From assembly GCA_964405805.1 (NCBI GenBank), contig CAYOPE010000001.1, positions 4,898-68,897 on the forward strand: DNA of 64,000 nt, read 5' to 3'. The DNA is from an uncultured Candidatus Saccharibacteria bacterium (GTDB taxonomy: Bacteria > Patescibacteriota > Doudnabacteria > UBA920 > O2-02-FULL-48-8). Positions 2,449 through 46,815 of this stretch are shown here, in pieces (position 1 is the stretch's first letter; each line of letters begins with the position of its first letter). A program made the position numbers and the translations under genes. The notes below the pieces were generated by a model that was not told the origin of the DNA, did no database searches, and saw only the letters and a list, made by a program, of their open reading frames with translations.

Positions 2449-3487
2449 AATTACGCTGAAAGATCAGATAATTTTTGTTAAGCGCTTAGCTTTGATTGTC
2501 CGATCCGGAACCCCGCTCCTGCAAGGCTTGCAAATGCTCAACAGTCAAGCCGGCTCGAAAAAAATGGGCAAAATTTTGCCGCAAGTAATATATGATGTGG
2601 AGCATGGACAATATTTGGCAGTTGCGTTGGGCAGATTTAGAAAAATTTTCGGTGAATTTGCTATTAACATCATTGAAATCGGTGAAGTTTCAGGGACACT
2701 GCCGGAAAATCTGGATTATCTGGCAGAAGAACTCAAAAAGAAACAAACTTTGCGCCGCAAAGTCATCGGCGCTATGGTTTATCCGGTATTCATGGTCATT
2801 TCGACTTTTGGCGTCACGATTTTATTGACGATTTATTTGTTTCCGAAAATTTTACCAATTTTTAAGAGTGTGAATTTCAGTTTGCCCATTACTACACGTC
2901 TCCTGATTTTTATCAGCACCCTACTGATCAATCACGGCACGCTTTTTTTGATTCTGGCCATGCTTTTAGTCATCGTTTTTCTGCTGCTCATGAGAATTCC
3001 GCCTGTGAAATATTTGTATCAGAGAATTATGCTTTCTGTACCAGTGCTCGGTAACCTCGTTCAGACTTATAACCTGGCCAATATTTGTCGCACCCTCGGT
3101 CTGCTGCTAAAAAGTAATGTCGCGATCGTGCGCACGACCAAAATTACTTCACGCACGACCAATAATTTGGTTTATCAAACTCATTTGGGCGAGATAGCGG
3201 AGACACTTACTAAAGGCGGCCAGATTTCTGACTATATTCAAATGCATACACAGGTATTTCCGACGATTCTCACGCAAATGGTGACTATTGGTGAGCGCAC
3301 AGGAAACCTCAGTCACACTTTTTTGTACCTGGCCGACATGTATGAAGCTGAAGTGGATGAAACCACGAAAAATTTGTCCACGATTTTAGAGCCTATACTT
3401 CTGGTCCTCATGGGACTTATGGTAGGCTTTGTGGCGATTTCTATAATTACACCGATTTATGGCCTCACGCAGAGACTACACCCGTAA
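2441..3487 (+). CDS. pilC: Type IV pilus inner-membrane platform protein (PilC/GspF family)
   Basis: Two GspF-like repeats with TM segments. 8-nt overlap with the pilB stop. Confidence 0.85.
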   Translation: MNRITLKDQIIFVKRLALIVRSGTPLLQGLQMLNSQAGSKKMGKILPQVIYDVEHGQYLAVALGRFRKIFGEFAINIIEIGEVSGTLPENLDYLAEELKKKQTLRRKVIGAMVYPVFMVISTFGVTILLTIYLFPKILPIFKSVNFSLPITTRLLIFISTLLINHGTLFLILAMLLVIVFLLLMRIPPVKYLYQRIMLSVPVLGNLVQTYNLANICRTLGLLLKSNVAIVRTTKITSRTTNNLVYQTHLGEIAETLTKGGQISDYIQMHTQVFPTILTQMVTIGERTGNLSHTFLYLADMYEAEVDETTKNLSTILEPILLVLMGLMVGFVAISIITPIYGLTQRLHP

Positions 3488-3953: not shown

Positions 3954-5388
3954 AAATTCTGAAGACGGTGTGGCGACACTAGAAATTTTGATTGCTATGA
4001 CTATCATCATCTTGGCTGTGTCAGCCGTGATCGTCGTAGTGTTTAGTGGTCAGTCGTTTTCTGTTGACTCGCAAACTGATCAAGACGCACTCTATAAAAA
4101 CCAAACTTTACTTGAGACCGCGCGAGCCAATGCTTCAAAATCAGTGAGTTTAGTTTCTAGTCAAACTATTTCTGATCCGTTTTATTCTGGCAATCTTTCT
4201 GCTTCGGATCTAAATGTGGACGTGAGCAAACTGGTGAGCACAGCGCTGAACTGGCATACAGATGTCAGGACCCAGGCCATGGCTTCGGAGACAATTGTGG
4301 TGGATCTGAAAGCGGCACTGGGCAGCAGTGGCTGTAGTAATACGGTATCATCTGGCTGGTCCAATCCTACAATTTTAAATCCTTCGCATACGATTGATAT
4401 TGATCCGGATACATTGACGGGTATGACCTATGCTAACAATGTCGTTTATATTACCGGCAATCATTCTTCTGCGAGCAAGGACGATTTTTATACAGTAGAT
4501 GCATCTGATCCAACTTGGCCGAAGCTATATCCGAACGGACATCTAAACACGGGTCCTGGATTGGCAGCGGTCGTGGTTGCTGGGCATTACGCTTATGTAG
4601 CGAATACGAGCACCACAGCCCAGCTGCAGGTGATAGACGTCACAGATCCAGCTAATCCAGTTTATCTGTCCAGTGCCAACAGACAAGTTGCCAGTACGCA
4701 TTCGAGTGTGGGCAATTCTATTTATTATTACAAAAATACCGTGTATTTAGGGCTCACAGCCCATGGCTCAGAACCGCAGTTTGCGATTTTTGACGTAACG
4801 ACTCCGACGAATCCCATAGCAAAAGGAACATATAACCAAATCGGTCATGATGTAAATTCGATCCGAGTTAAAGACGATTACGCTTATGTTGCCAGCCCAG
4901 CTAATGAGAATATGACAATTTTAAATATTAGCAATCCGAATAGTCCGACCAGGGTCGGTGGTTTTACTCCGACGGCGCTGCCAGACAGTAATGGTGTCGG
5001 TTCAAATTACGGCGAGAGTCTATTTGTGACTGGTAACACAGCGTACCTCGGCAGAACTTATGGCACGAATGAATTTTATGTACTCAATGTAAGTACTCCA
5101 GGAAATGTTTCGGTTTCCAATAGCGCTGACTTTGGAAGCGGGAATCAAACCAGTATTAACGGAGTTATCGTTAGATCGAATTTGGTATTTACTACTACCA
5201 ATTCTGTGTTTCAAGTGCGTCAGCTATCGAATCTTAGTAGCGTATTTGGCTCTTTGACATTATCAAGCACTTCTCCTACAGGTGATTTTAATTGTAATGG
5301 TAATGTTCTGTATGTGGGAGTGCTCGGACCGAGTGGTACAAGCGGCCATGATGTCCTAAAAATTATCGGTCCAGGAGCAGGCCCATGA
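3946..5388 (+). CDS. Large pilin-like protein with LVIVD-type beta-propeller repeats (putative pilus-associated adhesin)
   Basis: Start MIRNSEDGVATLEILIAMTIIIL... is pseudopilin-like (GxxTLEI + hydrophobic helix). Body holds >=5 repeats of YAYVA(N/S)...L.V.DV(S/T).P..P (LVIVD repeat pattern). ATG overlaps the previous stop. Confidence 0.65.
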   Translation: MIRNSEDGVATLEILIAMTIIILAVSAVIVVVFSGQSFSVDSQTDQDALYKNQTLLETARANASKSVSLVSSQTISDPFYSGNLSASDLNVDVSKLVSTALNWHTDVRTQAMASETIVVDLKAALGSSGCSNTVSSGWSNPTILNPSHTIDIDPDTLTGMTYANNVVYITGNHSSASKDDFYTVDASDPTWPKLYPNGHLNTGPGLAAVVVAGHYAYVANTSTTAQLQVIDVTDPANPVYLSSANRQVASTHSSVGNSIYYYKNTVYLGLTAHGSEPQFAIFDVTTPTNPIAKGTYNQIGHDVNSIRVKDDYAYVASPANENMTILNISNPNSPTRVGGFTPTALPDSNGVGSNYGESLFVTGNTAYLGRTYGTNEFYVLNVSTPGNVSVSNSADFGSGNQTSINGVIVRSNLVFTTTNSVFQVRQLSNLSSVFGSLTLSSTSPTGDFNCNGNVLYVGVLGPSGTSGHDVLKIIGPGAGP

Positions 5389-5879
5389 TTGATCAAAGAA
5401 AACAACAAGGTTTTACATTACTAGAGACCGTGGTTTATCTCGGTTTGTTTGCCATAGTCATTGGCGGCGGTATGATTGCCACGTATGAGATCATTCAAAG
5501 TTCAGGCAAGGTGAGTAATCAGGCCATGGTATCAGAAGAGGCGAATTTTTTGCTGTCAAAAATTAATTGGGGGCTATCTGGCGCTACTGCCATTAGCATT
5601 CCATCTTCCACGACATTAGTAGCGACGAAAATCATCAATTCGATTTCCACGAATTTAACTTTTACTCTTTCTGGGAGCAATTTAACCCTGCAACGCGGCG
5701 CCAATACCGCTCAAATCCTAAATTCTAGTAATGTCACAGTGTCGAATTTAAATTTTACAAATATTCCAGCAAGTGGCGGCATTCCGCAAGGTGTTACTAT
5801 GAGTCTCACGATAACTTCGCGAGGATCTGGTGGCGTAGTTAGCCGCGATTTTTCTACTACTAAATATTTACGTCAATGA
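5385..5879 (+). CDS. Prepilin-type N-terminal domain protein (pseudopilin)
   Basis: MIDQRKQQG|FTLLETVVYLGLFAIVIGG; 4-nt overlap with the upstream gene. Confidence 0.6.
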   Translation: MIDQRKQQGFTLLETVVYLGLFAIVIGGGMIATYEIIQSSGKVSNQAMVSEEANFLLSKINWGLSGATAISIPSSTTLVATKIINSISTNLTFTLSGSNLTLQRGANTAQILNSSNVTVSNLNFTNIPASGGIPQGVTMSLTITSRGSGGVVSRDFSTTKYLRQ

Positions 5880-6310: not shown

Positions 6311-6799
6311 ATGTTTAAAAACTTTAAGAAATCCCAAAACGGGTTCACCCTGATTGAAATCTTGGTGGTCATGGGGATCATTGCTGTTTTGGCTGCAATT
6401 GTCGTAATTGCTATCAACCCAGCTAGACAGTTTGCGCAAGCCAGAAACACGCAGCGATCCAGTGATATCAATACCATATTGAATGCCATCGGACAAAACG
6501 TAGCAGACAATAAAGGTACGCTAACTTGCGCGAGTATTGTGACTGCCATACCAGTTTCTCCAACTGCAGCAAACGATATTGGTACTGGAGGAGTCGCAGA
6601 TGTAAACTTGAGCTGTCTTACGCCAACGTACATTGCTGGCGGAGTTCCTATGGATCCTTCAGGCGGAACCGCTGGAGACACTAAGTACACGATCCAGCAG
6701 GATACGGTAGCCAATGGTTCGAGATATATAGTATGTGCACCTAATTCGGCGGAAACTGCAATCGTTCCAACTCCAGCAGTCCTCTGTGTTACTCGTTAA
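6311..6799 (+). CDS. pilA: Type IV pilin (likely major pilin, PilA-like)
   Basis: MFKNFKKSQNG|FTLIEILVVMGIIAVLAAIVVIAINPARQ is a canonical type IVa pilin N-terminus. Last gene before a strong terminator. Confidence 0.75.
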   Translation: MFKNFKKSQNGFTLIEILVVMGIIAVLAAIVVIAINPARQFAQARNTQRSSDINTILNAIGQNVADNKGTLTCASIVTAIPVSPTAANDIGTGGVADVNLSCLTPTYIAGGVPMDPSGGTAGDTKYTIQQDTVANGSRYIVCAPNSAETAIVPTPAVLCVTR

Positions 6800-6810
6800 C
6801 CTGAATTCCC

Positions 6811-6841
6811 AAAACCGCCTTTACACAAGGGCGGTTTTTTG
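6811..6841 (+). terminator. Rho-independent terminator of the pilus operon
   Basis: aaaaccgcc-tttacacaa-gggcggtttttt. Confidence 0.7.
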
Positions 6842-6909
6842 TTAAACTTACTATTATGAAAATTTCGAAAGCCCAAAACAACTGGCACCGTAACCAACTC
6901 TGCTTTGTA

Positions 6910-6993
6910 GAGGTTGGTTAGATTTGTATTGATTTATATTTTACCAACCCCTGCAAAGCAGGGGTTTTTTCTTTGGTGAAAAAAGGAGGAACG
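6910..6993 (+). promoter_or_regulatory. Leader module A: GAGGTTGGTTAG box, CCCCTGC-loop-GCAGGGG hairpin + U-run, then AAGGAGGA RBS
   Basis: The same three-part layout recurs at 8232-8320 upstream of a different operon. TTGGTT-N16-TATATT could be a promoter; the hairpin 6948-6964 is followed by TTTTTT. Confidence 0.4.
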
Positions 6994-7752
6994 ATGACGA
7001 GAGCGCCGCGAAGATTTGTCGTACTGGGCGAGAATGATTGGCGAGGCCAGCCATCAGTTGCATATGGAGTCGTCAGACGACTGGCTTACGAGCAGCGTCG
7101 AGCGTCGCATGGATCTACTTATATAAGAGTATTTTTGTTTGACGTTGGTCGCAGAGGTGATCCTTGGGGAGGGCTAGGGCTTGAGGTCAATGGTCAGGTA
7201 TATCGATTTGGCGCAGGAGTAAATCGTTGGCCTGAATATCACAATGGATACGGCGAGCTGACAGAAGTAGGAAAGATGGCTTTAGCTAGTGGAGTCCCGG
7301 GATTTCTCAAAATGGGTTGCGACTGGCGATGGGTGCAGGATGAGCTTGATCTTACGCACCTGTTTACCCAAGGTCAAATAAATCAAGTCGCACTGAACTA
7401 TGCTGATTTGATGAATGAACTTCTACCGACTCCACGTTTTCAGGCCTGGATTTGGTCTAAGCGACTGGGCACAGAGCTTCTGCCGGGTCACTACAACTGC
7501 ACGACTTTCATTCTAGATCAGTTCCGGAAAGTGGGTAGACCGTTGTCGCAACAGAAAACTCCGCTACCGGCATTTGATGCCCTTCTTCAGTTGAGTAAGG
7601 ACCAGGATCAGGACTTACACGCTTTACTCGCAAAGCAAGAGTCTGAGTTAATGGCCTCGCTATTAGTTTTCGATCCTTACTTAGACTGGGGATTGATTGC
7701 CAAGTTCCAATTAGCCTTACCCCGCAACCTAAGTTTGTCGAGTTTGGTTTAG
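6994..7752 (+). CDS. Hypothetical protein (higher GC than backbone)
   Basis: ATG at 6994 follows RBS AAGGAGGA. 253-aa ORF with ~50% GC; no family recognised. Confidence 0.6.
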   Translation: MTRAPRRFVVLGENDWRGQPSVAYGVVRRLAYEQRRASHGSTYIRVFLFDVGRRGDPWGGLGLEVNGQVYRFGAGVNRWPEYHNGYGELTEVGKMALASGVPGFLKMGCDWRWVQDELDLTHLFTQGQINQVALNYADLMNELLPTPRFQAWIWSKRLGTELLPGHYNCTTFILDQFRKVGRPLSQQKTPLPAFDALLQLSKDQDQDLHALLAKQESELMASLLVFDPYLDWGLIAKFQLALPRNLSLSSLV

Positions 7753-7755
7753 ACT

Positions 7756-7788
7756 CAGGACCAAGATACAAAATCTTGGTCCTTTTTA
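7756..7788 (+). terminator. Rho-independent terminator
   Basis: caggaccaagat-acaaa-atcttggtcct-ttttt. Confidence 0.65.
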
Positions 7789-7793
7789 TAGCC

Positions 7794-7838
7794 TTGACAC
7801 AACAAGGAATATAGTATATCATGCTAGCACGTTAGCAT
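7794..7838 (+). promoter_or_regulatory. Putative sigma70-type promoter (TTGACA-N17-TATCAT) overlapped by CTAG-core palindrome CATGCTAGCACGTTAGCAT
   Basis: Seen directly upstream of the yerC-like gene. The palindrome has 6-bp arms ATGCTA/TAGCAT and a GCTAGC core, similar to the CTAG-containing TrpR operator. Confidence 0.5.
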
Positions 7839-7865
7839 AAGGCCCTTAAAACCCCAGTAAACCCT

Positions 7866-8159
7866 ATGGAATCGAGTAAATGGCAAAATCAGGATACGAC
7901 CAAGCTGTTTGAGGCTGTTTTAAAGCTTCGGACAGTGGACGAGTGCGAGGATTTATTTCGCGATCTGCTGACCTTGGCTGAGATTCGGGAGATGAGCATG
8001 AGGTTTAAAGTAGCTCGGATGCTGGATAAAGGAAACAAGTCATATCTTACTATTGCGAAAGAAGCCAAAATTACTACTGCGACCATTACCCGTATCGCTC
8101 ATTGGTTTAGGCACGGGATGGGAGGGTATAAGTTAGTTATCGATCGTTTAAAAAATTAA
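7866..8159 (+). CDS. yerC: TrpR-like DNA-binding protein, YerC/YecD family
   Basis: LFEAVLKLRTVDECEDLFRDLLTLAEIREMSMRFKVARML...SYLTIAKEAKITTATITRIAHW matches the YerC/YecD TrpR-related HTH family. Confidence 0.8.
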   Translation: MESSKWQNQDTTKLFEAVLKLRTVDECEDLFRDLLTLAEIREMSMRFKVARMLDKGNKSYLTIAKEAKITTATITRIAHWFRHGMGGYKLVIDRLKN

Positions 8160-8178
8160 TTATTTTGATTTATATTAC

Positions 8179-8190
8179 CATGCTAGCATG
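8179..8190. promoter_or_regulatory. Perfect 12-bp palindrome CATGCTAGCATG (second copy of the yerC-associated operator-like site)
   Basis: Shares CATGCTAGCA with the site at 7820-7830. Lies between the yerC stop and the downstream leader module B. Confidence 0.45.
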
Positions 8191-8231
8191 TTATAACAGA
8201 CAATTAGTGAATCATACCAGCCCCTCACTTG

Positions 8232-8320
8232 GAGAGGTTGGTTAGGTATGCTTTTGAATTAAAAGTCTTCCTCATCAGCCCCTGCAAGCAAGCAGGGGTT
8301 TTTCGTTGAAGGAGGAGAGC
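8232..8320 (+). promoter_or_regulatory. Leader module B: GAGAGGTTGGTTAG box, CCCCTGCAAGCAAGCAGGGG hairpin + U-run, GAAGGAGGAG RBS
   Basis: Same architecture as module A (6910-6993). Confidence 0.4.
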
Positions 8321-8506
8321 ATGTTCCAAATGCATGATGGGGGGACAGACGTTGATCCGAAAAAGTACCGAAAGGAAGAATACAGAAATCCGAAGAAACC
8401 GGTAAAAGAATGGCCGGACCATTGGACCCAAGAACAAGAGGATTTTGCTTGGTCTCCTTGTGACTGGGATTCTGATCCTGACGATGGCGAACCAAATGCG
8501 CATTAG
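8321..8506 (+). CDS. Small acidic hypothetical protein
   Basis: ATG 8 nt after GGAGGAG. 61 aa, Asp/Glu/Trp-rich. First ORF of a three-gene GC-rich operon. Confidence 0.4.
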   Translation: MFQMHDGGTDVDPKKYRKEEYRNPKKPVKEWPDHWTQEQEDFAWSPCDWDSDPDDGEPNAH

Positions 8507-8517
8507 GAGGAGGGAGA

Positions 8518-9057
8518 ATGAAAGCGATTGGGTTACCTGAAGGCGGTGGACATGGCAAGGTCCGTGGAAATTTCGTTGTTTATCACAACATCGAAGGCCT
8601 AATCGAAGATCTGTTGCCGGTTTATCTGAAGGATATTTTTCGAAAGAAATATCCAAAACCAAACTGGCGCGGGTTTCAAGAAGCCGAAAAACGTCGAATC
8701 AATCAGAAGGCCAAGGAAATAATCTCAGGTCTTGTCTCCATCAGTTGGCCGTTTAACCATTGGAGCACTGGTGAGCGACAGTTGCCTGACATAAAAATTC
8801 AACTGCCGGGCAAAGGCCTAGCTTCCTTGGAGCGATCCATTCGCATGGCCGTTCGACAAACTCGACGCCGAGAATGGCAGGAAGAAAGTGCAAGATATCG
8901 GCGTTGGGCCAAAGATTTACCTGGTGAGCTACGGCGCATTAGAAAGGAGTACCAAGCGGAATTGTCAGCAATCCGCAAAGAAGGTCAAGTGAAGTTGTCA
9001 ATCCAGGTTCCGTACGTAGGTCCTGCAACTCATTCAGATTGGTACAGTCGACACTAG
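8518..9057 (+). CDS. Hypothetical protein with Arg-rich C-terminal helix
   Basis: RBS GGAGGAGGGAG precedes ATG. 179 aa, no recognisable family. Confidence 0.55.
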   Translation: MKAIGLPEGGGHGKVRGNFVVYHNIEGLIEDLLPVYLKDIFRKKYPKPNWRGFQEAEKRRINQKAKEIISGLVSISWPFNHWSTGERQLPDIKIQLPGKGLASLERSIRMAVRQTRRREWQEESARYRRWAKDLPGELRRIRKEYQAELSAIRKEGQVKLSIQVPYVGPATHSDWYSRH

Positions 9058-9066
9058 GAGGTAGCG

Positions 9067-9606
9067 ATGATTCGAAAGATTCAGATTGGTGTCATGGGAA
9101 GCGCAGCAGATTTGGGTTACACCGAAGCTGTGGCCAAGCTCGCTGAAGAAATCGGCAGGGAAGTGGCGCTGGCGGGTTGCACGCTAGTGTTCGGTGCTGA
9201 GAAAGACTGCGACTCACTCTCCACAGCGGCTGGCCGTGGTGCGCGTTCCGCCGGAGGTCTGACAGTTGGCATCACTTACGGCAAGGGTTTGGCAGTGTTC
9301 GATGATGCTGATATCATCATTGCCACTGGACTCGAGCGCGGCGGTGGCCGGGAATTCGTGTTGGCTCTTTCGTGCGATGCGATCATCGCCATCAGCGGTG
9401 GCAGTGGCACTCTCACCGAAATGGTGATCGCGTATCAAGCCAACATCCCGGTCATCGGCATCTACGGCTGCGGCGGCTGGAGTCAGAAGATGTTCGGGGA
9501 GGCGTTTGATACCCGCCGACCACATCTAGCAATTCGGGGTGCTACCAAAGCGAGGCAAGCGGTGGAGTTGGCATTGGCTGCAATTCAAGCAGCAGTAAAG
9601 ATTTAG
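9067..9606 (+). CDS. LOG/TIGR00725-like Rossmann-fold nucleotide-binding protein (SLOG superfamily)
   Basis: RBS AGGAGG precedes ATG. Contains GIYGCGG, ...AIISGGSGTLTEMVIAY (PGGxGTxxE-like LOG motif) and an N-terminal IGVMGSA glycine loop. Confidence 0.65.
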   Translation: MIRKIQIGVMGSAADLGYTEAVAKLAEEIGREVALAGCTLVFGAEKDCDSLSTAAGRGARSAGGLTVGITYGKGLAVFDDADIIIATGLERGGGREFVLALSCDAIIAISGGSGTLTEMVIAYQANIPVIGIYGCGGWSQKMFGEAFDTRRPHLAIRGATKARQAVELALAAIQAAVKI

Positions 9607-9615
9607 ATTCATTGA

Positions 9616-9650
9616 GATCAGGAGAGCGCGAGCTCTTCTGATCTTTTCGT
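9616..9650 (+). terminator. Rho-independent terminator
   Basis: gatcaggagagc-gcga-gctcttctgatc followed by ttttcgttt. Confidence 0.7.
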
Positions 9651-9805
9651 TTGCCTTGACAATGATATTTAAAAGTAATCCAAGAAGAGTATCATAAAAG
9701 TATACAGATCAGCCAAAACAATCTAGGGTCCGGCTGAGTAAGTCACCCTAGTGGCAGATAGATAGGGAGGGAGTGTCTAAATTCGTTTTCAGAAGGAGGG
9801 ATAGC

Positions 9806-10540
9806 GTGAGACAGTTGTTTGAAAATGTCGCGTCTCGTCCAGCACACGTGGGGCCGAGGAAAGCCTGGATCATCTCGGTCACCACTGTCATCTACGCAGC
9901 GATCGGCGGAGCATTGCTCATCGCTCCGTTGTGGGCGACGAATGTTCTACCCGCCGTCGACAAGGTGCTCGAGTGGGAGGCCCCGCCGAAGCCTCCGGTG
10001 CCGGTCAAGATCAAACGACCGGACAGGCCGAAGAAGGACCCGAAGTCGGGTGGAACCACGTCGAACGATCCGGAGCCACGAGTGCCGACGAAGCCTCCGG
10101 ACGACATCAAACCAGAGCCGCCCGGACCACGACCTGGCCCTCCCGGACCCGGACCGGATCCCTGTCCTGGGTGTCTGGAAGTCGATGTACCGAGAGGACC
10201 GATACCCGAGCCACCACCGCCACCCAAGCCACCGGATCCGCCGAAGCCGGAACCGCCGACGCGGCTACCGCCCAGTGTTAGGCAGCCGGTGAAGATCGCC
10301 GATGTACTGCCAATCTATCCGGATGGAGCGAAGAATGCGCGTGTGCAGGGCGTGGTCATTCTCGAAGCCGTGATCAGCTCGGACGGCAGGGTACAGGATG
10401 TCAAAGTCCTGCGTTCGATCCCGCTGCTCGACAGGGCTGCGATGGATGCAGTTCGGCAGTGGCGGTACACGCCCACACTCCTCAACGGCGTACCAGTGTC
10501 AGTGATCATCACGGTCACGCTCAACTTTACCCTGCAGTAG
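9806..10540 (+). CDS. TonB family protein (N-terminal TM anchor, Pro-rich spacer, TonB C-terminal domain)
   Basis: GTG at 9806 follows AGGAGG. Spacer ...KPPVPVKIKRPDRPKKDP...PEPPPPPKPPDPPKPEPP; C-terminal ...VQGVVILEAVISSDGRVQDVKVLRS...AMDAVRQWRYTP. ~62% GC. Confidence 0.7.
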   Translation: MRQLFENVASRPAHVGPRKAWIISVTTVIYAAIGGALLIAPLWATNVLPAVDKVLEWEAPPKPPVPVKIKRPDRPKKDPKSGGTTSNDPEPRVPTKPPDDIKPEPPGPRPGPPGPGPDPCPGCLEVDVPRGPIPEPPPPPKPPDPPKPEPPTRLPPSVRQPVKIADVLPIYPDGAKNARVQGVVILEAVISSDGRVQDVKVLRSIPLLDRAAMDAVRQWRYTPTLLNGVPVSVIITVTLNFTLQ

Positions 10541-36712: not shown

Positions 36713-38032
36713 TTGCAAAGCAAAATTGCGAAGGTTCGACCAATTACGACAATGGGGCGGCCAAGAAAACTCACACCCACAATTGAAAAGGCGCCACCGA
36801 AATTAGCCGGAGCCAATGATTTACTACCAGAGCACCATCTGTCCTGGGAAGTGTTTTTAGAAAAATTGACTCATACCGCTCATAATTTCGGTTACAGCAA
36901 AATCGAAACTCCGATTTTCGAGGACGCTCGACTGTTTAGCTTCTGGTCACAGGGAAAAGACCAGCTTTTGACCACGCAAGATGCGAAGGGCGGTGCGATT
37001 GCGGCCAAGCCAACCAATATTTTTAGCTTGGTGCGTGCTTATCTCGAGTATCATTTTCCAGAGCGAGAAAAAGTCAGTAAGTGGTATTATCATTCGCCAG
37101 TCAACTGGGTCAGTCCCACGCACGAAATCAAACAAACTGAAGAGTATGGTTTTCAAGTTTTCGGCGCTTTTGCCCCGATCGCTGATGCTCAGATGATCAA
37201 TTTGTTGCAACGTTTATTTTCTGATCTGGGGCTGAAAAATTTGTCTTTAGAAATAAACAACATTGGCTGCATCGAGTGTCAGCCAGCTTATGCTGAGCAG
37301 CTGAAAAATTATTTTAAAGACAAAAAATACGATTTGTGTGAAAATTGTTTGGATTATCTAGAAAACAATCAGCCGCTTCAAATTTTGGCATGCACGAATT
37401 TATCTTGTCATACGGTAGCCTCAGAAGCTCCAACTTTGATTGATTTTTTGTGTGAAAATTGTCGTAAACATTTCATTGGAGTTTTGGAAGGTTTAGATGA
37501 ATTGGGTCTTGTGTACAATTTGAATCCGAAAGTGATCGGTAAACCGTGGTCTCGAAAAACTGTTTTCGAAATCCGATTTCGTGGCGAAACTGGCGATGCG
37601 GTGCTAGGCAGTGGCGGCCATGCGGACGATCTGATTCAAAGTTTGGGAGGACTACCGACTACAGCGCTAGGATTTTCTGGCACGATAGACATGATCATGT
37701 CTTCTTTCGAGCTGGCTAATGTCAAATTTAGTACCAAGCAGCAAGTCGATGTGTTTTTGGTCCCCCTAGGTGACCTAGCTGCGAAAAAAACTCTCAGATT
37801 GTTTACTGAGCTTTGGAATCAGAACATCATGGCTTCAGAATTTTCAGGACCGGGATCGATAAAAACTCAGCTGAAGCTAGCTGAATCGAACAAAGTTAGT
37901 ATTGCTTTGATCATTGGACAAAAAGAAGCACGGGAAGGTACTGTCATCCTCCGTGATGTCCGCTCAGGCATGCAGGAGCTGTTTACTTACGAGCGAATCA
38001 TTGAGGAAGTGAAGAAGCGGCTTGGCAAATAG
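36713..38032 (+). CDS. Histidyl-tRNA synthetase-like paralog with degenerate catalytic motifs and a Cys-rich insertion
   Basis: HisRS-like class II core (GYSKIETPIFE...; motif 3 reduced to GSGGHADDL) and an anticodon-binding-like C-terminus. Motif 2 Arg/Gln residues are absent. Insertion CIEC...CENC...C...C...CENC. The canonical hisS is at 56363. Confidence 0.65.
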   Translation: MQSKIAKVRPITTMGRPRKLTPTIEKAPPKLAGANDLLPEHHLSWEVFLEKLTHTAHNFGYSKIETPIFEDARLFSFWSQGKDQLLTTQDAKGGAIAAKPTNIFSLVRAYLEYHFPEREKVSKWYYHSPVNWVSPTHEIKQTEEYGFQVFGAFAPIADAQMINLLQRLFSDLGLKNLSLEINNIGCIECQPAYAEQLKNYFKDKKYDLCENCLDYLENNQPLQILACTNLSCHTVASEAPTLIDFLCENCRKHFIGVLEGLDELGLVYNLNPKVIGKPWSRKTVFEIRFRGETGDAVLGSGGHADDLIQSLGGLPTTALGFSGTIDMIMSSFELANVKFSTKQQVDVFLVPLGDLAAKKTLRLFTELWNQNIMASEFSGPGSIKTQLKLAESNKVSIALIIGQKEAREGTVILRDVRSGMQELFTYERIIEEVKKRLGK

Positions 38033-41469: not shown

Positions 41470-42135
41470 ATGGCCAAACAAAAACCAGGCCAGAGGAGGA
41501 AAATGAAGACTTATAGCAACGTCGTTCTTGTCGATCACCCAGTGGCGCATGATGCGCTACGGATTCTGCGCGACAAGAACACCGAGCCTGCTGCTTTTCG
41601 AGCAGCAGCGATGCGCATCAGCCTGATCCTGGCTGCAGAGGCTCTCCGGGAGGCTCCGACTGAAGAGAGAGTCGTGCAAACCCCGCTGGCGGAAGCAGCT
41701 GCTCAGAGCCTCAAAGACATCGTGGTCGTGCCAGTGTTGCGCGCAGGTCTCGGCATGCTCGACGCCGTCTTGCAGCTGGCGCCAAACGCCCACGTCGGTC
41801 ACATCGGATTGCAGCGAGACGAAGTGACGGCCGTGGCGTCGCAGTACTACCTGAAACTACCGCCAAATCTCGAGAGCTCTCTCGTTCTGCTGGTTGACCC
41901 CATGCTCGCCACCGGCGGCAGCGCTGTGGCAGCAGTTGATCTTCTGAAACTCGCAGGAGCCACGAACATCAGGATGATCTGCATCGTGGCGGCTCCTGAG
42001 GGCATCGCACTCATGACCGAGAAGCATTCGGATGTCACGATCTATACGCCTGCAGTGGACAGTCATCTGAACGACCAAAAGTACATCGTGCCGGGTCTCG
42101 GTGACTTCGGCGACCGACTCTACGGCACATTCTAG
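41470..42135 (+). CDS. upp: Uracil phosphoribosyltransferase (GC-rich island)
   Basis: PVLRAGLGM and VLLVDPMLATGGSAVAAVDLLK PRPP-binding motif, C-terminal YIVPGLGDFGDRLYGT. ~60% GC. Confidence 0.88.
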   Translation: MAKQKPGQRRKMKTYSNVVLVDHPVAHDALRILRDKNTEPAAFRAAAMRISLILAAEALREAPTEERVVQTPLAEAAAQSLKDIVVVPVLRAGLGMLDAVLQLAPNAHVGHIGLQRDEVTAVASQYYLKLPPNLESSLVLLVDPMLATGGSAVAAVDLLKLAGATNIRMICIVAAPEGIALMTEKHSDVTIYTPAVDSHLNDQKYIVPGLGDFGDRLYGTF

Positions 42136-42322
42136 AACTAAAAGCACAAGGGCCGATCAATAGTGGTCGGCTCGAGGAAGTGTGGTTCACAGCAGCCACG
42201 CTTTTCTTTTTGCTTTTTTTCTATTTTATAATTATAGTAACCGCAACGGAAACCTGTCTGCCGACAGGCAGGCGAAAGTTTTCAGGGTGCTATCAGCACC
42301 TTTACAGAAAGGTTGGAGGAAG

Positions 42323-43822
42323 ATGGACAAGCTTAACGCGGTCGAAGTTGGTCAGCATATGGCAAATATTGGCGTCATGGGTGATGCCTGCGGCGGAGTT
42401 CAGATCGACATCGCCGTGGCCTATCGTCAGACGCCGGAAGGACTGGTCGAAGGAACGACATGCGACCATGACTGCACGAACAACGAAGGCTGTGGCAATT
42501 ACGACTGCCCGGCTCACTACAGCGCTCCTGGAAACAGAGGTTTGAAAATCACGAGCATGGCGCCGGCTGATGTCATGCTGGACCGGATCACCAACGCTGT
42601 CTGGGGAGTACGCCGGGCCGTGGAGCGGTTTCTGGAAGTTGATTACCACGGCTTCTGTTACACGTCTGAGATTCGTGACGAAGTCGTGAAAGGTGTGATC
42701 GAGAGCCGGCTGCGCATGGGCAAGGTCATCGTGAATGTCTTTGGCGGCGAGCCGCTTCTCTACCCGCACTTCCTTCAGCTCGAAGGGGCGCTGATGGACC
42801 GCGGTTACACGTTGAACGTCACGACCACGGGGGACAAATGGCTCGATCCGAAGTTCGCCAAGGCCATGGAAGACATCGAGCCCACTGTGCTGGCATTGAG
42901 CCTGGATGATCTGACGATTCCGGAACTCCGGCGCCTCTCGAAGCTCACGCCCGAGCAGATCAAGCAGGAATGGAAAGCTCTCAGGGCGAAAAACCCCAAG
43001 CATGGGCAGGCGCTCAAAGCCCTCGAAGCCGTTTACGTCTTCGCGTACTACAAGGAACGTGGCGGCTATCCCAAGGGCAAGAAGCTCCTGGCCAACGCGG
43101 TGGTCCACAAAGGCAACCTGTCTCACATTCGCGACATGTTCGAGGTCGTGGCTGAAGTCGCTCCGGGGATCGTGTTCAATCCGTACGCAGGTCAGGCTGC
43201 GTTCGACCACGATGAAACAACCGGCCTGCGGCGTCGTGGAGAATTCGGCGCCGACGAAGTCCAGCAGTTCTCGGATTTCGTGGACTGGTCGATTTCGGAA
43301 AGCAAGCGGCCGGATGGTGTGATCGTCAAACGTTTGCCGCACTGGCTCCTGCATCGGGCAGCACTCGATGTTCACGAAGGTAAGACACGGGAGCAGTCCG
43401 ACGCCATCGCTGGGTGGAACTCCTGGCGCTGTCACAATCACGTGGGCGCGGGATTCTTCATGCAAGTCGGTCGATCACCGAAAGTGCGGATACCGAATCA
43501 GCCGCAGGTGATTTCGATTCAGGGCCTGCACGGAAAGACCGGCAGTAACGGCCAAGTCTATCCGGGCGGGCATCTGGGGTGCTTCTGGGATCCGACGACC
43601 GTAACCCAGGACGGACAGTACCACGACCAGATGGAGGTCATGGATTACCTGCACTACGGCATGAAATCTCTCGCGCAGAAGTCTGCTGATCCCTGTCCCG
43701 GATGCCGAATGCCGCGGCTTGACTCACTCCATCTCGTGATCCTCGAGGCAGGGATTCCGACTGACGATCCGACGCTGAAGAACCGGTATCTGAATCTGCG
43801 TCGAGAGCACGCCGGGTTCTAA
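42323..43822 (+). CDS. Hypothetical Cys-rich protein, possibly a divergent radical-SAM-type enzyme
   Basis: ATG after GGAGG. N-terminal cluster CDHDC-x5-C-x4-C, then VNVFGGEPLL (radical-SAM-like glycine motif) and LNVTTTGD ~22 aa later. C-terminal cysteines CPGC. The Cys spacing is not the canonical CX3CX2C. Confidence 0.45.
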   Translation: MDKLNAVEVGQHMANIGVMGDACGGVQIDIAVAYRQTPEGLVEGTTCDHDCTNNEGCGNYDCPAHYSAPGNRGLKITSMAPADVMLDRITNAVWGVRRAVERFLEVDYHGFCYTSEIRDEVVKGVIESRLRMGKVIVNVFGGEPLLYPHFLQLEGALMDRGYTLNVTTTGDKWLDPKFAKAMEDIEPTVLALSLDDLTIPELRRLSKLTPEQIKQEWKALRAKNPKHGQALKALEAVYVFAYYKERGGYPKGKKLLANAVVHKGNLSHIRDMFEVVAEVAPGIVFNPYAGQAAFDHDETTGLRRRGEFGADEVQQFSDFVDWSISESKRPDGVIVKRLPHWLLHRAALDVHEGKTREQSDAIAGWNSWRCHNHVGAGFFMQVGRSPKVRIPNQPQVISIQGLHGKTGSNGQVYPGGHLGCFWDPTTVTQDGQYHDQMEVMDYLHYGMKSLAQKSADPCPGCRMPRLDSLHLVILEAGIPTDDPTLKNRYLNLRREHAGF

Positions 43823-43852
43823 ACGTAAATGGAGGACGGATGAAGAGACTGG

Positions 43853-43890
43853 CGGGTGCGCGTAGCGATTACGCGCCCCGCCTTTTTTCA
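43853..43890 (+). terminator. GC-rich rho-independent terminator
   Basis: ggcgggtgcgcgtagcgattacgcgccccgcc-tttttt. Confidence 0.7.
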
Positions 43891-43958
43891 TTTGCTAGTT
43901 TTTGTTTGTGGACGCTATAATGCATAAGTCAACCGAGACTCCGAGTTGGAGTTCTCAC

Positions 43959-44456
43959 ATCAACGGAGGTTTGCCTATGTGTCCCGAAAGTCTCGCGCAT
44001 CTCGCACGAGGAACGGCCGAGGTCGGTGATCAAGTCGTCGCCAAGGACTTCAAGCACCAGGGCAGCAGTCACACGTTCACGATGTACGCGCGCACGGACA
44101 ACCCGACGTGTCCGGTCTGTCTGCCGAACGGCGCCACGATCTGCTTCAAGGATCCGTCGAGGCGGGTTCGCCGGCTCGCGGAAGTCACAGACGGTCCGGT
44201 CGTGGCCACACTCGCCAACGGCGCGTTCTACGAGAGCACGTTCGCATTCGCGAACGGCGCGACGGCCACGCTGTCGGAGATCCGCGGTGCGGTCTTCAAC
44301 GTCATTCCCGCCATCGCCACGAGCGACGAGATCAACGAGGAGGCGCGGCGCATCTTCACTGAACTCAGCCCGGAACTCGATCCGGTGCTCGCTCAGGCCG
44401 CGGCGACGGCACGCATCGCCCGAACCCAGTCGCGCGGCCAGACGGTCGCGGCGTAG
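43959..44456 (+). CDS. Hypothetical protein (GC-rich island)
   Basis: ATG 8 nt after GGAGG. The alternative frame 44026-44820 is Arg/Ser low-complexity and judged spurious. Confidence 0.5.
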   Translation: MNGGLPMCPESLAHLARGTAEVGDQVVAKDFKHQGSSHTFTMYARTDNPTCPVCLPNGATICFKDPSRRVRRLAEVTDGPVVATLANGAFYESTFAFANGATATLSEIRGAVFNVIPAIATSDEINEEARRIFTELSPELDPVLAQAAATARIARTQSRGQTVAA

Positions 44457-44620
44457 CACGTCGCGTTCGACGCCGACACAACCAAGCGACGCAGGAAGCG
44501 TCGGGGCGGTTCACCACCAGGTGATCCGCTCTTTTCATTTGTCAGAAAATGCATGCGTTTGGTATCCTATAGTATCAAGCGCAGGGCTTGGTAATGTTTT
44601 CAGTCTGAAACGGAGGAGAG

Positions 44621-46102
44621 ATGATCCCAAGATATACGAATTCTCGGATCCAGGCTATCTGGTCGGATCAGAACAAGACCAGGCTCTGGGATTGCAGCGA
44701 ACTCGCTGCGGTCCAGGCTTCGGAAGAGCTTGGCGAATTTCCTGCCGGCGTGTATCAGAAGATTGCCGCATCGCTCGCAGCACATCCTGTGGATCTCGAG
44801 TGGTGGCTTGCGAAAGATAAAGAAATCCATCACGACCTCAATGCCTACCTCGAAGAGCGGCTGCGGTTCATCGTCAAGAACCTACAGATCTACTTTCATC
44901 GCTACATGACCTCGTTCGACACGGAGGAGCCGGCGTTCGGCCGAATGCTTCGTGACTCAGTCGACGTGGTACTCGAAATGTGTGCTGAACTCGATCTGAT
45001 TCTGGCTTCGCTGGCGCGCAGATACCAGTACACGGTCATGATCGGACGCAGTCATCAGCAAGGCGGCGATCTGCAGACTTTCGGCAAAAGGGTCTGCACG
45101 TGGCTACGAGATCTTCGTACTGCCGCCCAGATTCTGGGCGATGTATCGGTCGATCTCAAGTACTCGAAGATGTCAGGGGCCATGGGTAACTATGGTCTGT
45201 TCAAACCAGAAGTCGAGCGCCGAGCACTCGCGATTCTCGGCTTCGAGCCGTACGTCGGTGCCACACAGATTATGCCGCGGGTGCTTTACGTGCCAGTGGC
45301 TGCTGCGCTTTCGGGTTTGGTCTCGACTATTTCGAAAATCGGCAATGACATCCGCCTCGGCGCGCGCAGTCCGAAGCCCATCTGCCAGGAACCGTTCAAG
45401 AAAAAACAGAAGGGTTCGTCGGCCATGCCGCACAAGAAGAATCCGATTCGCTGCGAACAGCTGGAAGGCATGGCCAGGGTTGCCCGTGGCTTCCTATCGA
45501 TGAACGCCGAAAACGTGCAGACTGACGAGGAGCGCGCCATCGAACAGTCCTCAGTGGAACGAATCGCATGGCCGGACCTGTTTCATGTCACTTGTCAGGC
45601 TCTGGATGTGCTGACCCAGGTCACGTCCGGGTTGAAAGTCTATCCCGATAACATGCTCTGGGAACTCGTCCAATCGCGTGGTTGCTACGCGGCGTCACAG
45701 GCCAAAGAAGTCCTAAAGACCATGGGCGAGGAGCTGTGGAATGACGCTGAGGAGCCGTACCGAATAGTCCAACTGGCTGCGTTCAACGTCTTTGAACCCA
45801 GCCAGAAAGCAAAGCGCATGCGCGAATTCCCGGAAACCTCGTTTGCTTTCGCCGAAAATTTCCTGATGGCGCCACACTCGTTCGAAACCGAGTGTGTCAC
45901 CATCCAGGAGGTGATCGTGCGCGGGCGGCTGCGGGTATCTGATGAGCTCGACGCGGACGAAGCAGTGGTGCAGCGCTGGAATCGCATTCTGGATTCGATT
46001 TTCGCGGACGAACGGAATCGCGACCAGTGGACGGAAATTTTTCGTCCAGCAGTACTTCTGGCTCACGAGTCCGCGATCTTCGCAGCGCTCTTGGGCGAGT
46101 AG
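44621..46102 (+). CDS. purB: Adenylosuccinate lyase (fumarate lyase family)
   Basis: N-terminus MIPRYTNSRIQAIWSDQNK... and the fumarate-lyase signature GSSAMPHKKNP. Confidence 0.85.
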   Translation: MIPRYTNSRIQAIWSDQNKTRLWDCSELAAVQASEELGEFPAGVYQKIAASLAAHPVDLEWWLAKDKEIHHDLNAYLEERLRFIVKNLQIYFHRYMTSFDTEEPAFGRMLRDSVDVVLEMCAELDLILASLARRYQYTVMIGRSHQQGGDLQTFGKRVCTWLRDLRTAAQILGDVSVDLKYSKMSGAMGNYGLFKPEVERRALAILGFEPYVGATQIMPRVLYVPVAAALSGLVSTISKIGNDIRLGARSPKPICQEPFKKKQKGSSAMPHKKNPIRCEQLEGMARVARGFLSMNAENVQTDEERAIEQSSVERIAWPDLFHVTCQALDVLTQVTSGLKVYPDNMLWELVQSRGCYAASQAKEVLKTMGEELWNDAEEPYRIVQLAAFNVFEPSQKAKRMREFPETSFAFAENFLMAPHSFETECVTIQEVIVRGRLRVSDELDADEAVVQRWNRILDSIFADERNRDQWTEIFRPAVLLAHESAIFAALLGE

Positions 46103-46201
46103 AATTCGGGTTTTGAGTTCGGGCGGGTTGCGCTTGCAGCCCGCCCTTTTTCTATAGTATGATGTCCTATCTAGTTCCCTTCGTTCTGAGAGGAGGATTG
46201 T

Positions 46202-46798: not shown

Positions 46799-46815
46799 CT
46801 GACGAGGAGTGTGAC

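Follow-up and report, generated by a model that had tools for sequence, protein, structure and literature searches.

Genes and sites at the yerC locus

The stretch of DNA analysed here, 64 kb long and called the window in the following, carries on its forward strand a yerC/hisR-like gene (7866-8159) that encodes a TrpR-fold helix-turn-helix repressor of 97 amino acids. The best promoter-like match within positions 6800-9800, TTGACA-N17-TATCAT, agrees at 11 of 12 positions and lies directly ahead of this gene at 7794-7822 on the same strand, with the -35 element TTGACA at 7794-7799, a 17-nt spacer and the -10 element TATCAT at 7817-7822. Transcription of yerC is predicted to start near A7829. 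The upstream gene (ORF 6973-7752) is followed by its intrinsic terminator on the forward strand at 7757-7783, an 11-bp stem followed by a T-run, which marks the yerC promoter as that of a separate transcription unit. The palindrome CATGCTAGCACG was read at 7820-7831, as CATGCTAGCAC(G), and has the final 3 nt in common with the -10 element. A perfect 12-bp palindrome, CATGCTAGCATG, was read behind the gene at 8179-8190. The promoter, both palindromes and the yerC gene between them had been described in an earlier sequence-only reading of this DNA, and all of them could be confirmed from the sequence. An identical copy of the contig is present in SRR12313479. The distances given there were right within 1-2 nt: the first 12-mer ends 34 nt ahead of the ATG, and 19 nt separate the stop codon from the second palindrome.

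Each palindrome is embedded in a larger array on the forward strand, a probable operator. Operator 1 (7817-7839) consists of TA boxes at 7817-18, 7825-26 and 7833-34, spaced 8 bp, and extends from roughly -12 to +11 relative to the promoter. Its core at 7820-7839 is a 20-bp HisR-type palindrome, CATGCTA-GCACGT-TAGCATA. Operator 2 (8176-8198) has its TA boxes at 8176-77, 8184-85 and 8192-93 and lies 17 nt past the yerC stop codon; here CATGCTAGCATG forms the common centre of two overlapping 20-bp sites. Both operators contain the longer 18-mer TAnCATGCTAGCAyGTTA. A putative weak internal promoter, TTAAAA-N17-TATATT (8148-8176, forward strand, 9 of 12 positions), ends 2 nt ahead of the second palindrome, its poorly matching -35 element lying inside the last yerC codons. 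In the closest relative, L162, the equivalent at the same place reads TTGAAA-N18-TATATT. A transcript started about 7 nt past TATATT would lack the ATG at 8180.

Behind operator 2 follow, all on the forward strand, a leader peptide ORF (8180-8245), an attenuator RNA (8216-8305) and a putative controlled operon (8321-9645). The latter comprises a 61-aa ORF (8321-8506), a 179-aa ORF (8518-9057) and, as last gene, a SLOG/LDcluster4 LOG-like gene (9067-9606), and closes with a terminator at 9614-9645.

The two sites stand alone in the window. With at most one mismatch the 12-mer occurred in these two places only, against a mean of 0.2 in dinucleotide shuffles. A weight matrix, built from orthologous loci with the 64-kb window left out, scored operator 1 at 35.9; operator 2 reached 30.1 on the minus and 25.9 on the plus strand. 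The highest score elsewhere in the window was 8.0, and shuffled windows peaked at 10-18. A chance origin of the two sites can be excluded. Neither the 12-mer nor the weight-matrix scan detected a further site in the 64-kb window, including upstream of leader module A, and the motif is thus not a generic repeat in the 64 kb scanned. CTAG is not depleted (118 observed, 119 expected, ratio 0.99), so the presence of this tetranucleotide alone does not make the sites remarkable.

The regulator and its probable effector

The 97-aa protein matched the Pfam family PF01371, Trp_repressor (3.4e-20, 72 bits), and the NCBIfam family TIGR02531, YerC/YecD (82.2 bits, cutoff 42.2). It had been proposed to be YerC/TrpR-like. 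The assignment to YerC held, whereas the Trp-type part did not, the score against the TrpR equivalog TIGR01321 amounting to 24.2 bits with a cutoff of 67.25. Among solved structures, 3G1C, 3FRW and 3KOR matched at 1e-16 to 2e-14, the best being 3G1C from E. eligens (1.2e-16), which is counted as a HisR protein in the survey of histidine repressors in Firmicutes, Actinobacteria and Synergistetes (Ashniev et al. 2022, PMC9413887). The DNA-contact residues given there for HisR are Tyr, Thr-Ala-Thr, Ser/Thr and Arg (PMC9413887). In 33 clade members Y60, T71, A72, T73 and R76 were invariant and T75 nearly so, and these positions align with 3G1C. Judged by its sequence, the regulator is a member of the YerC/HisR histidine-repressor family.

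The helix proposed to bind histidine in HisR carries the motifs FFEDV and RFEVAKM in Firmicutes (PMC9413887). The corresponding motifs FFRDL and RFKVARM, invariant in the clade studied here, differ from these by two acidic-to-basic changes, to R32 and K48, and the effector pocket may therefore differ from that of Firmicute HisR. The co-repressor is most likely free histidine, as the His-codon leaders and the his genes linked to yerC, both described below, indirectly suggest.

Conservation of the probable operator motif

Among 13 non-redundant yerC loci of at least 60% identity, 12 have the strict 12-mer YRTGYTARCAYR between -150 and +5 relative to the start codon and 8 have it no more than 200 bp past the stop codon; the remaining 637 kb of locus sequence contained 5 occurrences. 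In the wider set of loci a relaxed form was used, the 19-mer TA-N-YRTGYTARCAYR-YTAR, written out as the search pattern TANYRTGYTARCAYRYTAR, of which at least 15 of the 18 specified positions had to agree. It was present within 156 nt upstream in 133 of 150 non-redundant yerC homologues (89%), compared with 0.8% of 877 control windows. The motif does accompany yerC orthologues in relatives. The sequence-only reading thus withstood both objections raised in advance against it, absence of the motif beside yerC orthologues and, within the 64 kb scanned, its spread as a generic repeat.

The aligned sites share TA at -3/-2, +6/+7 and +14/+15, in 35-42 of 42 upstream and in 13 of 13 downstream sites. 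The box core across the 42 upstream sites is YTAR, with C in 20 and T in 22 at position 1 and G in 22 and A in 20 at position 4. CTAG, TTAA, TTAG and CTAA all occur, and the invariant element is a TA every 8 bp with CAYG between. The CTAG half-sites from which the sequence-only reading had taken the operator to be built are hence not the conserved element, since within the core only TA is invariant. By this alignment the operator comprises three YTAR boxes at 8-bp intervals, i.e. overlapping 20-bp HisR-type palindromes, and the functional unit is about 20-28 bp long and not the 12-bp palindrome. No correlation was visible between the recognition helix and the core variants GCTAGC and GTTAAC, since all loci share the helix (S/T)TAT(I/V)TR(V/I)A(H/Q)W.

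The position of the arrays is conserved as well. A promoter TTGACA-N17-TAT(C/A)AT precedes the upstream site in L162, L082, L163, L164, L083, L003, L004 and L086, and in the aligned loci there is always an overlap between the array and the -10 and +1 of a TTGACA-N17 promoter. The geometry expected for autorepression, noticed before in the window, is thus conserved. An identical copy of the 20-mer of operator 1 occurs in L162, L163 and L164, and L082 has it in its downstream site. Orthologous downstream sites lie 17-23 nt past the stop codon in L162, L082, L083, L086 and L084 and farther away in L089 and L085.

The leader peptide and the attenuator

The leader peptide in the window, MLACYNRQLVNHTSPSLGEVG, starts from an ATG within operator 2, has its lone His codon at 8213-8215 (N-H-T) and ends on a TAG at 8243-8245 that falls in region 2 of the attenuator. 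Its orthologues end in AHHYSPSLGEVG (L162, with H-H-Y), AHHHNFSLGEVG (L083) and NHHSNRSAGGVG (L082). In ten unfused loci the leader peptide contains HH or HHH; its His codons vary synonymously between CAT and CAC, it has an in-frame Met, and its stop falls within region 2. Relatives have 2-4 His codons; with the single one in the window, sensing of histidine by the attenuator may be weak here. Four further loci (L163, L164, L004, L002) encode the leader peptide as a C-terminal extension of YerC.

The attenuator RNA can form a 1:2 hairpin (8216-8242), a 2:3 antiterminator pairing 8228-8246 with 8270-8288, and a 3:4 terminator (8277-8300) followed by a T-run. Folding yielded a minimum free energy of -40.2 kcal/mol (z -3.4) and, for the antiterminator, -23.9 kcal/mol (z -3.3). 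Pairing over 15 leaders reached 95.6% in the terminator and 78.5% in P1; alifold gave the antiterminator as consensus. In the leader alignment 86.6% of all cells were paired, compared with 41-60% when the register was slid. Since the leaders are conserved in sequence, support from covariation is thin, with only 2 pairs of the attenuator helices changing on both sides among the 15 leaders; the structure rests on conservation, thermodynamics and coding pattern, not on covariation. A short ORF, a regulatory codon, a stop in region 2, alternative structures and a T-run place this leader in the class of leader-peptide attenuators. Rfam returned two tRNAs as the only matches over the whole window and in a permissive scan of 6780-8560. 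The his operon leader RF00514 gave no match at the gathering threshold and none at E ≤ 10 on 6780-8560. Leader matches to mir-955, OmrA-B, PsrR1 and Trp_leader (21 bits) were below gathering scores and were discarded, as they reflect only a hairpin and a terminator.

Genes behind yerC

A link to histidine became apparent in the genes that follow yerC in relatives. About 44 loci carry hisS behind yerC, in the same orientation and at a distance of some 50-190 nt (mostly about 100 nt). No other gene pair is as common across the wider subfamily as yerC-hisS. Pfam confirmed HisG, PRA-CH (HisI) and HisRS behind the leader in L091, L083 and L092. The SLOG orthologue directly follows yerC and the leader in L082 and L083, in the latter with hisI (PRA-CH) behind it; in L041 it also lies behind yerC, where no leader was identified. 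Other genes behind yerC are mostly of unassigned function: SLOG, DUF6282 and p223/p270. None of the three genes of the operon in the window is a recognised histidine gene, and neither of the two hisS-like genes in the window has a site or a leader.

Discussion

We propose that both palindromes are operators of the YerC/HisR-type repressor encoded between them, which would repress its own gene and, backed by the attenuator, control the downstream operon. We hold this reading, based on conservation and arrangement of the sequences, with a probability of about 0.72; binding, effector, transcription start sites and direction of regulation are inferred. The three-box array amounts to two overlapping 20-bp palindromes (xxxxxTA-N6-TAxxxxx), and repressor dimers would accordingly bind side by side on each array. 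Operator 1 covers the -10 and the predicted start point of the yerC promoter, a strong one, where the co-repressor-bound protein would shut off its own synthesis. No terminator is found between yerC and operator 2 or the leader. Operator 2 would block transcription into the leader in one of two ways, as the operator of the weak internal promoter or as a roadblock to read-through from yerC. A ribosome stalled at the His codon or codons would mask region 1, regions 2 and 3 could then pair, and the terminator at 8277-8300 would not form. With leader module B identified as a leader-peptide attenuator, two layers of control would act on the LOG-like operon: the repressor would sense free histidine and the attenuator charged tRNA-His. 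Expression of the 61-aa ORF, the 179-aa ORF and the SLOG gene would require that free histidine and charged tRNA-His are both low.

The same protein and sites could also work without a second promoter, operator 2 serving as a roadblock or an auxiliary operator, for example in looping, and all transcription of the operon stemming from the yerC promoter. The terminator-free stretch from yerC to the leader is in line with this, as is the weak -35 at site 2. The leader ATG, only 2-8 nt past the yerC stop in L086, L083 and L088, suggests translational coupling, and where the leader peptide is the C-terminus of YerC, in the four relatives mentioned above, the operon has one promoter. However, all 13 downstream sites have an A/T-rich, -10-like ATATYA in front of them, and in the more distant genomes L116, L159 and L052 the downstream copies lie within full TTGACA-N17 promoters of the next operon. 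A downstream site that is a promoter operator is also suggested by L082, where this site and its spacer to the ATG duplicate the upstream one. We therefore consider this variant possible, with the odds clearly against it. A DNA loop of fixed phase was rejected, since sites 1 and 2 are 325-468 bp apart in relatives and have no common helical phase.

Another question concerns the ligand. The sites might be YerC operators in a neo-functionalised branch of the family that, in this CPR clade, responds to another metabolite. This would fit the basic residues that here take the place of two conserved acidic ones in the putative histidine-binding helix, and the mostly unassigned function of the downstream genes. 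The HH and HHH leader peptides directly downstream in the same clade argue against it, as do hisG, hisI and hisS among the controlled genes and the prevalence of the yerC-hisS pair, and we regard a different ligand as unlikely.

It would be far less probable still that the repeat has no regulatory role, with site 2 as a relic of a duplicated yerC promoter region or with CATG...CATG merely supplying leaderless mRNAs with their start codons. The downstream copy of L082 and its spacer to the ATG do resemble the upstream one. The yerC ATG forms the end of the palindrome, 7 nt past the -10, in L083, L003 and L004, and the ATG of the leader peptide lies inside the palindrome in the window and in L162, L085, L084 and L089. 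Yet the palindrome with its 8-bp periodicity is kept in several phyla despite fully diverged flanks, whether or not an ATG is used, and the leader peptide does not keep one frame with respect to the palindrome, which is crossed in another frame in L083 and L086. A role of the self-complementary palindromes, both of which would be transcribed, as RNA 5'-terminal hairpins acting on stability or translation can practically be dismissed, since the stem that CAUGCUAGCAUG allows has no more than 4 bp around a 4-nt loop and is too short and not conserved, the predicted pairing uses non-conserved flanks, and the conserved 8-bp TA periodicity is a signal of a DNA face and not of a helix.

The proposed repressor-operator system with its attenuator resembles several known systems, but also shows some differences. 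HisR operators are 20-bp palindromes, cacTTTAnnnnnnTAAAgtg, autoregulation was predicted in about half of the genomes studied, and HisR of R. gnavus binds in a histidine-dependent manner in vitro (PMC9413887). Our system shares with HisR the family (PF01371/TIGR02531), the DNA-contact residues, the 20-bp palindromic frame around TA-N6-TA (site 1, CATGCTA-N6-TAGCATA, has 7 of 10 symmetric pairs), the predicted autoregulation and a genomic association with histidine genes, the last one in relatives. It differs in the half-site consensus, CAyGyTA instead of cacTTTA in the published lineages, in sites that form arrays of 3-4 boxes, one of them behind the gene, in the two basic pocket residues and in controlled genes that mostly are not histidine biosynthesis genes. 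The lineage, CPR/Patescibacteria, lies outside the coverage of the survey, where attenuators were sought only in the absence of HisR; the combination of a His leader-peptide attenuator with a repressor is a layout absent from it (PMC9413887).

With E. coli TrpR, acting on the trp, aroH and trpR operators, the regulator has in common the fold, the autoregulation of the repressor gene, here predicted, and boxes at 8-bp intervals. TrpR dimers bind in tandem on tandem CTAG boxes. Here, the CTAG core is not conserved, the spacer is CAYG and not TTAA, the effector is presumably histidine, and the protein is not a TrpR equivalog. For TrpR, GNACT half-sites with 8-bp spacing and the consensus TGTAcTnGTnnACnAgTACA are cited in PMC9413887. 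The leader, in turn, resembles the enterobacterial his leader (RF00514) and the firmicute His attenuators (PMC9413887) in its short peptide with, in relatives, consecutive His codons, the stop in region 2, the mutually exclusive 1:2, 2:3 and 3:4 pairings and the intrinsic terminator at the end. Unlike these, it has no Rfam match and 1-4 His codons only, is placed behind a repressor gene, in some genomes being translated as the C-terminal tail of the repressor, and would control genes outside biosynthesis.

A broader interpretation, which we consider somewhat less likely than not, is that the repressor gene, the two operators and the His-codon attenuator form one portable histidine-starvation cassette with interchangeable cargo in this CPR clade. 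The C-terminal tail of YerC (NHHHRSSGGVG before the stop) would in some genomes be the leader peptide of the attenuator itself, so that translation of the repressor mRNA would act as the sensor of tRNA-His. The cassette would occupy a fixed locus ahead of hrcA-grpE-dnaK and carry as cargo the SLOG/LOG-like gene, the 179-aa ORF, DUF6282, the pair p223 and p270 or a HAD hydrolase. To our knowledge, the CPR hosts of this cassette are generally thought to be unable to make histidine. If the cassette interpretation is true, the cargo could constitute an undescribed histidine-salvage or starvation response.

Conclusion

For the narrow claim of the sequence-only reading, the outcome mostly confirms what appears to be an ordinary autoregulated amino-acid repressor. 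The kind of amino-acid control is known; new are the site variant and the layout, in an uncultivated CPR bacterium. This layout is unusual in that a predicted repressor operator is stacked on a ribosome-mediated attenuator, with the leader peptide fused to the repressor in some genomes. We know of almost no transcription-factor regulons in CPR/Patescibacteria that have been defined experimentally or computationally. Here, repressor, operator motif, promoter architecture and attenuator are all readable from the sequence and conserved over about 150 loci, and whole genomes can be searched with the operator motif. Candidate histidine-starvation genes are now the SLOG/LDcluster4 gene, DUF6282 and two families without a Pfam match. 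All in all, the regulon proposed here can be tested and may help to clarify histidine sensing in reduced, probably auxotrophic symbionts.

Results

The yerC promoter of the window, read from the sequence, consists of a -35 element TTGACA (7794-7799), a 17-nt spacer and a -10 element TATCAT (7817-7822), and was the top sigma-70-like match within 6800-9800 (11/12 positions). The 12-mer CATGCTAGCACG (7820-7831; site 1) overlaps the -10 hexamer, the yerC ORF of 97 aa (7866-8159) follows after a predicted UTR of about 37 nt that lacks a Shine-Dalgarno sequence, and a perfect palindrome, CATGCTAGCATG (8179-8190; site 2), lies 19 nt 3' of the stop codon. This arrangement, proposed in the sequence-only reading, was confirmed on the sequence. 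When up to one mismatch was allowed, the 12-mer occurred in the 64 kb only at these two sites, which share 16/18 positions of TAnCATGCTAGCAyGTTA; shuffled sequences average 0.2 such occurrences.

The encoded protein matched Pfam Trp_repressor (3.4e-20) and NCBIfam TIGR02531 YerC/YecD (82 bits, cutoff 42), and the TrpR equivalog was rejected (24 bits versus a cutoff of 67). Its closest solved structure was 3G1C, one of the HisR structures of the study that renamed B. subtilis YerC as HisR, a TrpR-family histidine repressor (PMC9413887). The DNA-contact residues listed there (Y60, T71, A72, T73, T75, R76) are kept. The recognition helix, (S/T)TAT(I/V)TR(V/I)A(H/Q)W, was constant in all loci with the CAYG-YTAR motif, whereas Firmicute HisR has ..STATISRVNRS.. 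at this place, a difference that fits a putative subfamily-specific half-site. R. gnavus HisR requires L-histidine for binding in vitro, and a helix was proposed for histidine binding (PMC9413887). Since two acidic residues of that helix are Arg and Lys across the whole clade (FFRDL, RFKVARM), the effector could here differ from histidine.

Homologues were found almost exclusively in CPR/Patescibacteria MAGs, such as Doudnabacteria, Uhrbacteria and Peribacteria; the exact window protein was also present on a Logan contig from SRR12313479. We gathered 164 homologue-bearing loci (designated L), of which 150-151 were left once duplicates were removed. The nearest relative, L162 (89% identity), is syntenic with the window in the order pilin, unknown gene, yerC, cargo genes and TonB_C gene. 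The strict pattern YRTGYTARCAYR occurred upstream of yerC (-150 to +5 of the start codon) in 37/151 loci, including 12 of the 13 at >=60% identity, and within 200 bp 3' of the stop in 12 loci, eight of them among these 13. A degenerate 19-mer that adds flanking boxes, TA-N-YRTGYTARCAYR-YTAR, was searched with up to three mismatches allowed among its 18 specified positions. It was found upstream in 133/150 loci, as compared to 0.8% of 877 control windows of matching size drawn from these loci, and downstream in 20/143. A weight matrix built from relatives alone scored the window sites at 35.9 and 30.1; the runner-up position in the window reached 8.0 and shuffles peaked at 10-18. The motif thus accompanies yerC orthologues. 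A generic repeat, the alternative that had to be considered, fails on the two occurrences in 64 kb and on the five matches of YRTGYTARCAYR in 637,090 bp of the loci outside the surroundings of yerC.

Alignment of 42 upstream and 13 downstream sites did not bear out the claim that CTAG is the conserved element: in the upstream sites C (20/42) and T (22/42) alternate at the first box position and G (22/42) and A (20/42) at the fourth. The invariant feature was a TA every 8 bp with CAYG between the boxes, the TA at -3/-2, +6/+7 and +14/+15 relative to the 12-mer being present in 35-42 of 42 upstream and in 13/13 downstream sites. In the window these boxes fall at 7817/18, 7825/26 and 7833/34 for site 1 and at 8176/77, 8184/85 and 8192/93 for site 2; some genomes, for example L010, L029 and L051, have four. 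HisR operators were described as palindromes of 20 bp, cacTTTAnnnnnnTAAAgtg, whose letters vary by lineage (PMC9413887). In this frame site 1 reads CATGCTA-GCACGT-TAGCATA, and the 12-bp palindrome of site 2 is the overlap of two such 20-mers. The architecture of the sites in the window and its relatives is that published for HisR. Some operator arrays (L086 2924-2990, L083 ~4711-4781) are interrupted by a hairpin, GC-rich and 30-50 nt long, as in CATGCTAGCACGTTAGC[ctgcccg..cgggcggg]CATAAG, which looks like a small insertion element landed in the site.

In every close relative, as in the window, the array overlaps the core promoter of yerC. One layout, that of the window, is TTGACA-N17-TATCAT followed directly by GCTAGCA..; in the other, TTGACA-N17-TA(A/G)CAT, the -10 is itself a half-site. 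The geometry suspected for autorepression thus held, and the predicted layout is the classical overlap repression of a regulator's own promoter. HisR autoregulation was predicted for about half of the genomes covered in PMC9413887. In L083, L003 and L004 the 12-mer ends in the yerC ATG, at a distance of exactly 7 nt from the -10; a putative leaderless mRNA is implied.

No terminator was found between yerC and site 2 in the window. Directly behind site 2 stands a conserved leader of four parts, leader module B of the sequence-only reading: a short ORF ending (G/E)(E/G)VG, with its stop codon within the conserved GGTTGGTTAG; a hairpin of regions 1:2 (8216-8242); an alternative 2:3 helix (-23.9 kcal/mol, z -3.3) in which the 5' half of the terminator is tied up; and the terminator itself (8277-8300). 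Folded as a whole, the leader has an MFE of -40.2 kcal/mol (z -3.4). Among 15 aligned leaders pairing was 95.6% for the terminator and 78.5% for P1, the RNAalifold consensus was the antiterminator, and covariation was sparse because the leader sequence is conserved. The leader matched no Rfam family.

In relatives, HH or HHH stands in the leader ORF immediately 5' of region 1: the peptides end ..AHHYSPSLGEVG in L162, ..AHHHNFSLGEVG in L083 and ..NHHSNRSAGGVG in L082, and L086, L084, L089, L085, L003, L088 and L091 have likewise HH/HHH peptides. Codons vary synonymously between CAT and CAC, and each peptide has an in-frame Met. The leader layout is that of a ribosome-mediated histidine attenuator. 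In L163 (5268-5321), L164 (5271-5324), L004 (3271-3324) and L002 (3254-3294) YerC itself ends, in frame, with this peptide (..LNHHHRSSGGVG), so that the repressor tail is the predicted sensor peptide of the attenuator; the second operator is absent from these four loci. The window peptide, MLACYNRQLVNHTSPSLGEVG (8180-8245), starts at an ATG within the palindrome. Since it has a single His codon, histidine sensing by the window attenuator may be weak.

A second attenuator copy, leader module A (6856-6970), precedes an unknown ORF (6973-7752). Its peptide MKISKAQNNWHRNQLCFVEVG (equivalent in L162: MLTCLSKIQNHRWTKLCFVEVG) has conserved W, H and R codons; the GAGGTTGGTTAG and CCCCTGCAAAGCAGGGGTTTTTT elements are the same, and no HisR-type site was found near it. 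In several relatives (L163 ~5400-5480, L162 ~3030-3075, also L164, L086, L084 and L002) the attenuator terminator is followed by a conserved ORF of very small size, with a strong Shine-Dalgarno sequence in front; it has the motif x(I/V)HRxxGGxGPH and may encode another leader peptide or a coupling peptide. The N-terminus of the window 179-aa ORF (MKAIGLPEGGGHGKV; 8518-8565) resembles it.

The window cargo, the genes downstream of the leader, comprises a 61-aa ORF, the 179-aa ORF and a SLOG/LDcluster4 'LOG-like' gene, closed by a terminator at 9614-9645. The same SLOG gene stands behind yerC and leader in L082 and L083, the latter having hisI (PRA-CH, 1e-33) next in line; in L041 it stands behind yerC, and no leader was identified there. 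Behind the leader of L091 come hisG-hisI-hisS; L092 and L008 carry hisS, and L088 carries hisG. About 44 loci of the wider CPR subfamily (for example L007, L093, L016, L054, L128) have a same-strand hisS ~50-190 nt (mostly ~100 nt) 3' of yerC, a pair that the HisR survey does not mention (PMC9413887). Among the further cargo are DUF6282, an AstE/AspA-like hydrolase, a HAD hydrolase and two families that have no Pfam match. The window also holds two histidyl-tRNA-synthetase-like genes (36713-38032, 56363-57601), upstream of which neither a HisR-type site nor a His leader was found.

The cassette stands ahead of hrcA-grpE-dnaK in the window, L163, L164, L002, L004, L086 and L005. The cargo that separates it from the conserved flank, either TonB or hrcA-grpE-dnaK, varies even among close relatives (window 8321-9606, L162 2722-4435, L163 5506-7048, L004 3692-5320), being SLOG, a HAD hydrolase, a p223+p270 pair or DUF6282. 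In this respect the locus acts as a hot spot at which genes are exchanged under one control region. Directly after the operon follows a protein with a TonB_C domain and a long Pro-rich linker (9773-10540; syntenic in L162, 4590-5324), unexpected because the lineage is not known to possess an outer membrane. A GC-rich island of the window (42000-48000; 0.56-0.58 versus ~0.45 elsewhere) with a radical-SAM protein, a Lyase_1 (purB-like) gene and a SAICAR-synthetase/AIR-carboxylase fusion may have been acquired horizontally.

Discussion

We propose that histidine-bound repressor would occupy each three-box array as two dimers. At operator 1 this would keep RNA polymerase off the yerC promoter. Operator 2, which according to the sequence-only reading could control the LOG-like operon, would either repress a weak internal promoter (TTAAAA-N17-TATATT, 8148-8176) or block read-through from the yerC promoter. 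In favor of an internal promoter, an A/T-rich, -10-like ATATYA precedes 13/13 downstream sites, distant downstream sites lie within full TTGACA promoters (L116, L159, L052), and the L082 downstream site, taken together with the stretch up to the ATG, is a duplicate of the upstream one. Leader peptides fused to YerC or adjacent to its stop, and the poor -35 at site 2, hint to a block of read-through. The attenuator would act as a second check, on tRNA-His charging.

The his genes behind yerC or the leader in relatives argue for a strong histidine link for the family; for the window's own cargo the suggested link is indirect. HisR-type repressors that regulate their own gene and have a palindromic operator are already known. 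New are the CPR lineage with a half-site of its own, the three-box arrays, the two operators bracketing yerC and the stacking of a repressor operator on a His leader-peptide attenuator, the published survey having sought attenuators only where HisR is absent (PMC9413887). New as well are the leader peptides that some genomes have joined to the repressor and a cargo that is mostly uncharacterised.
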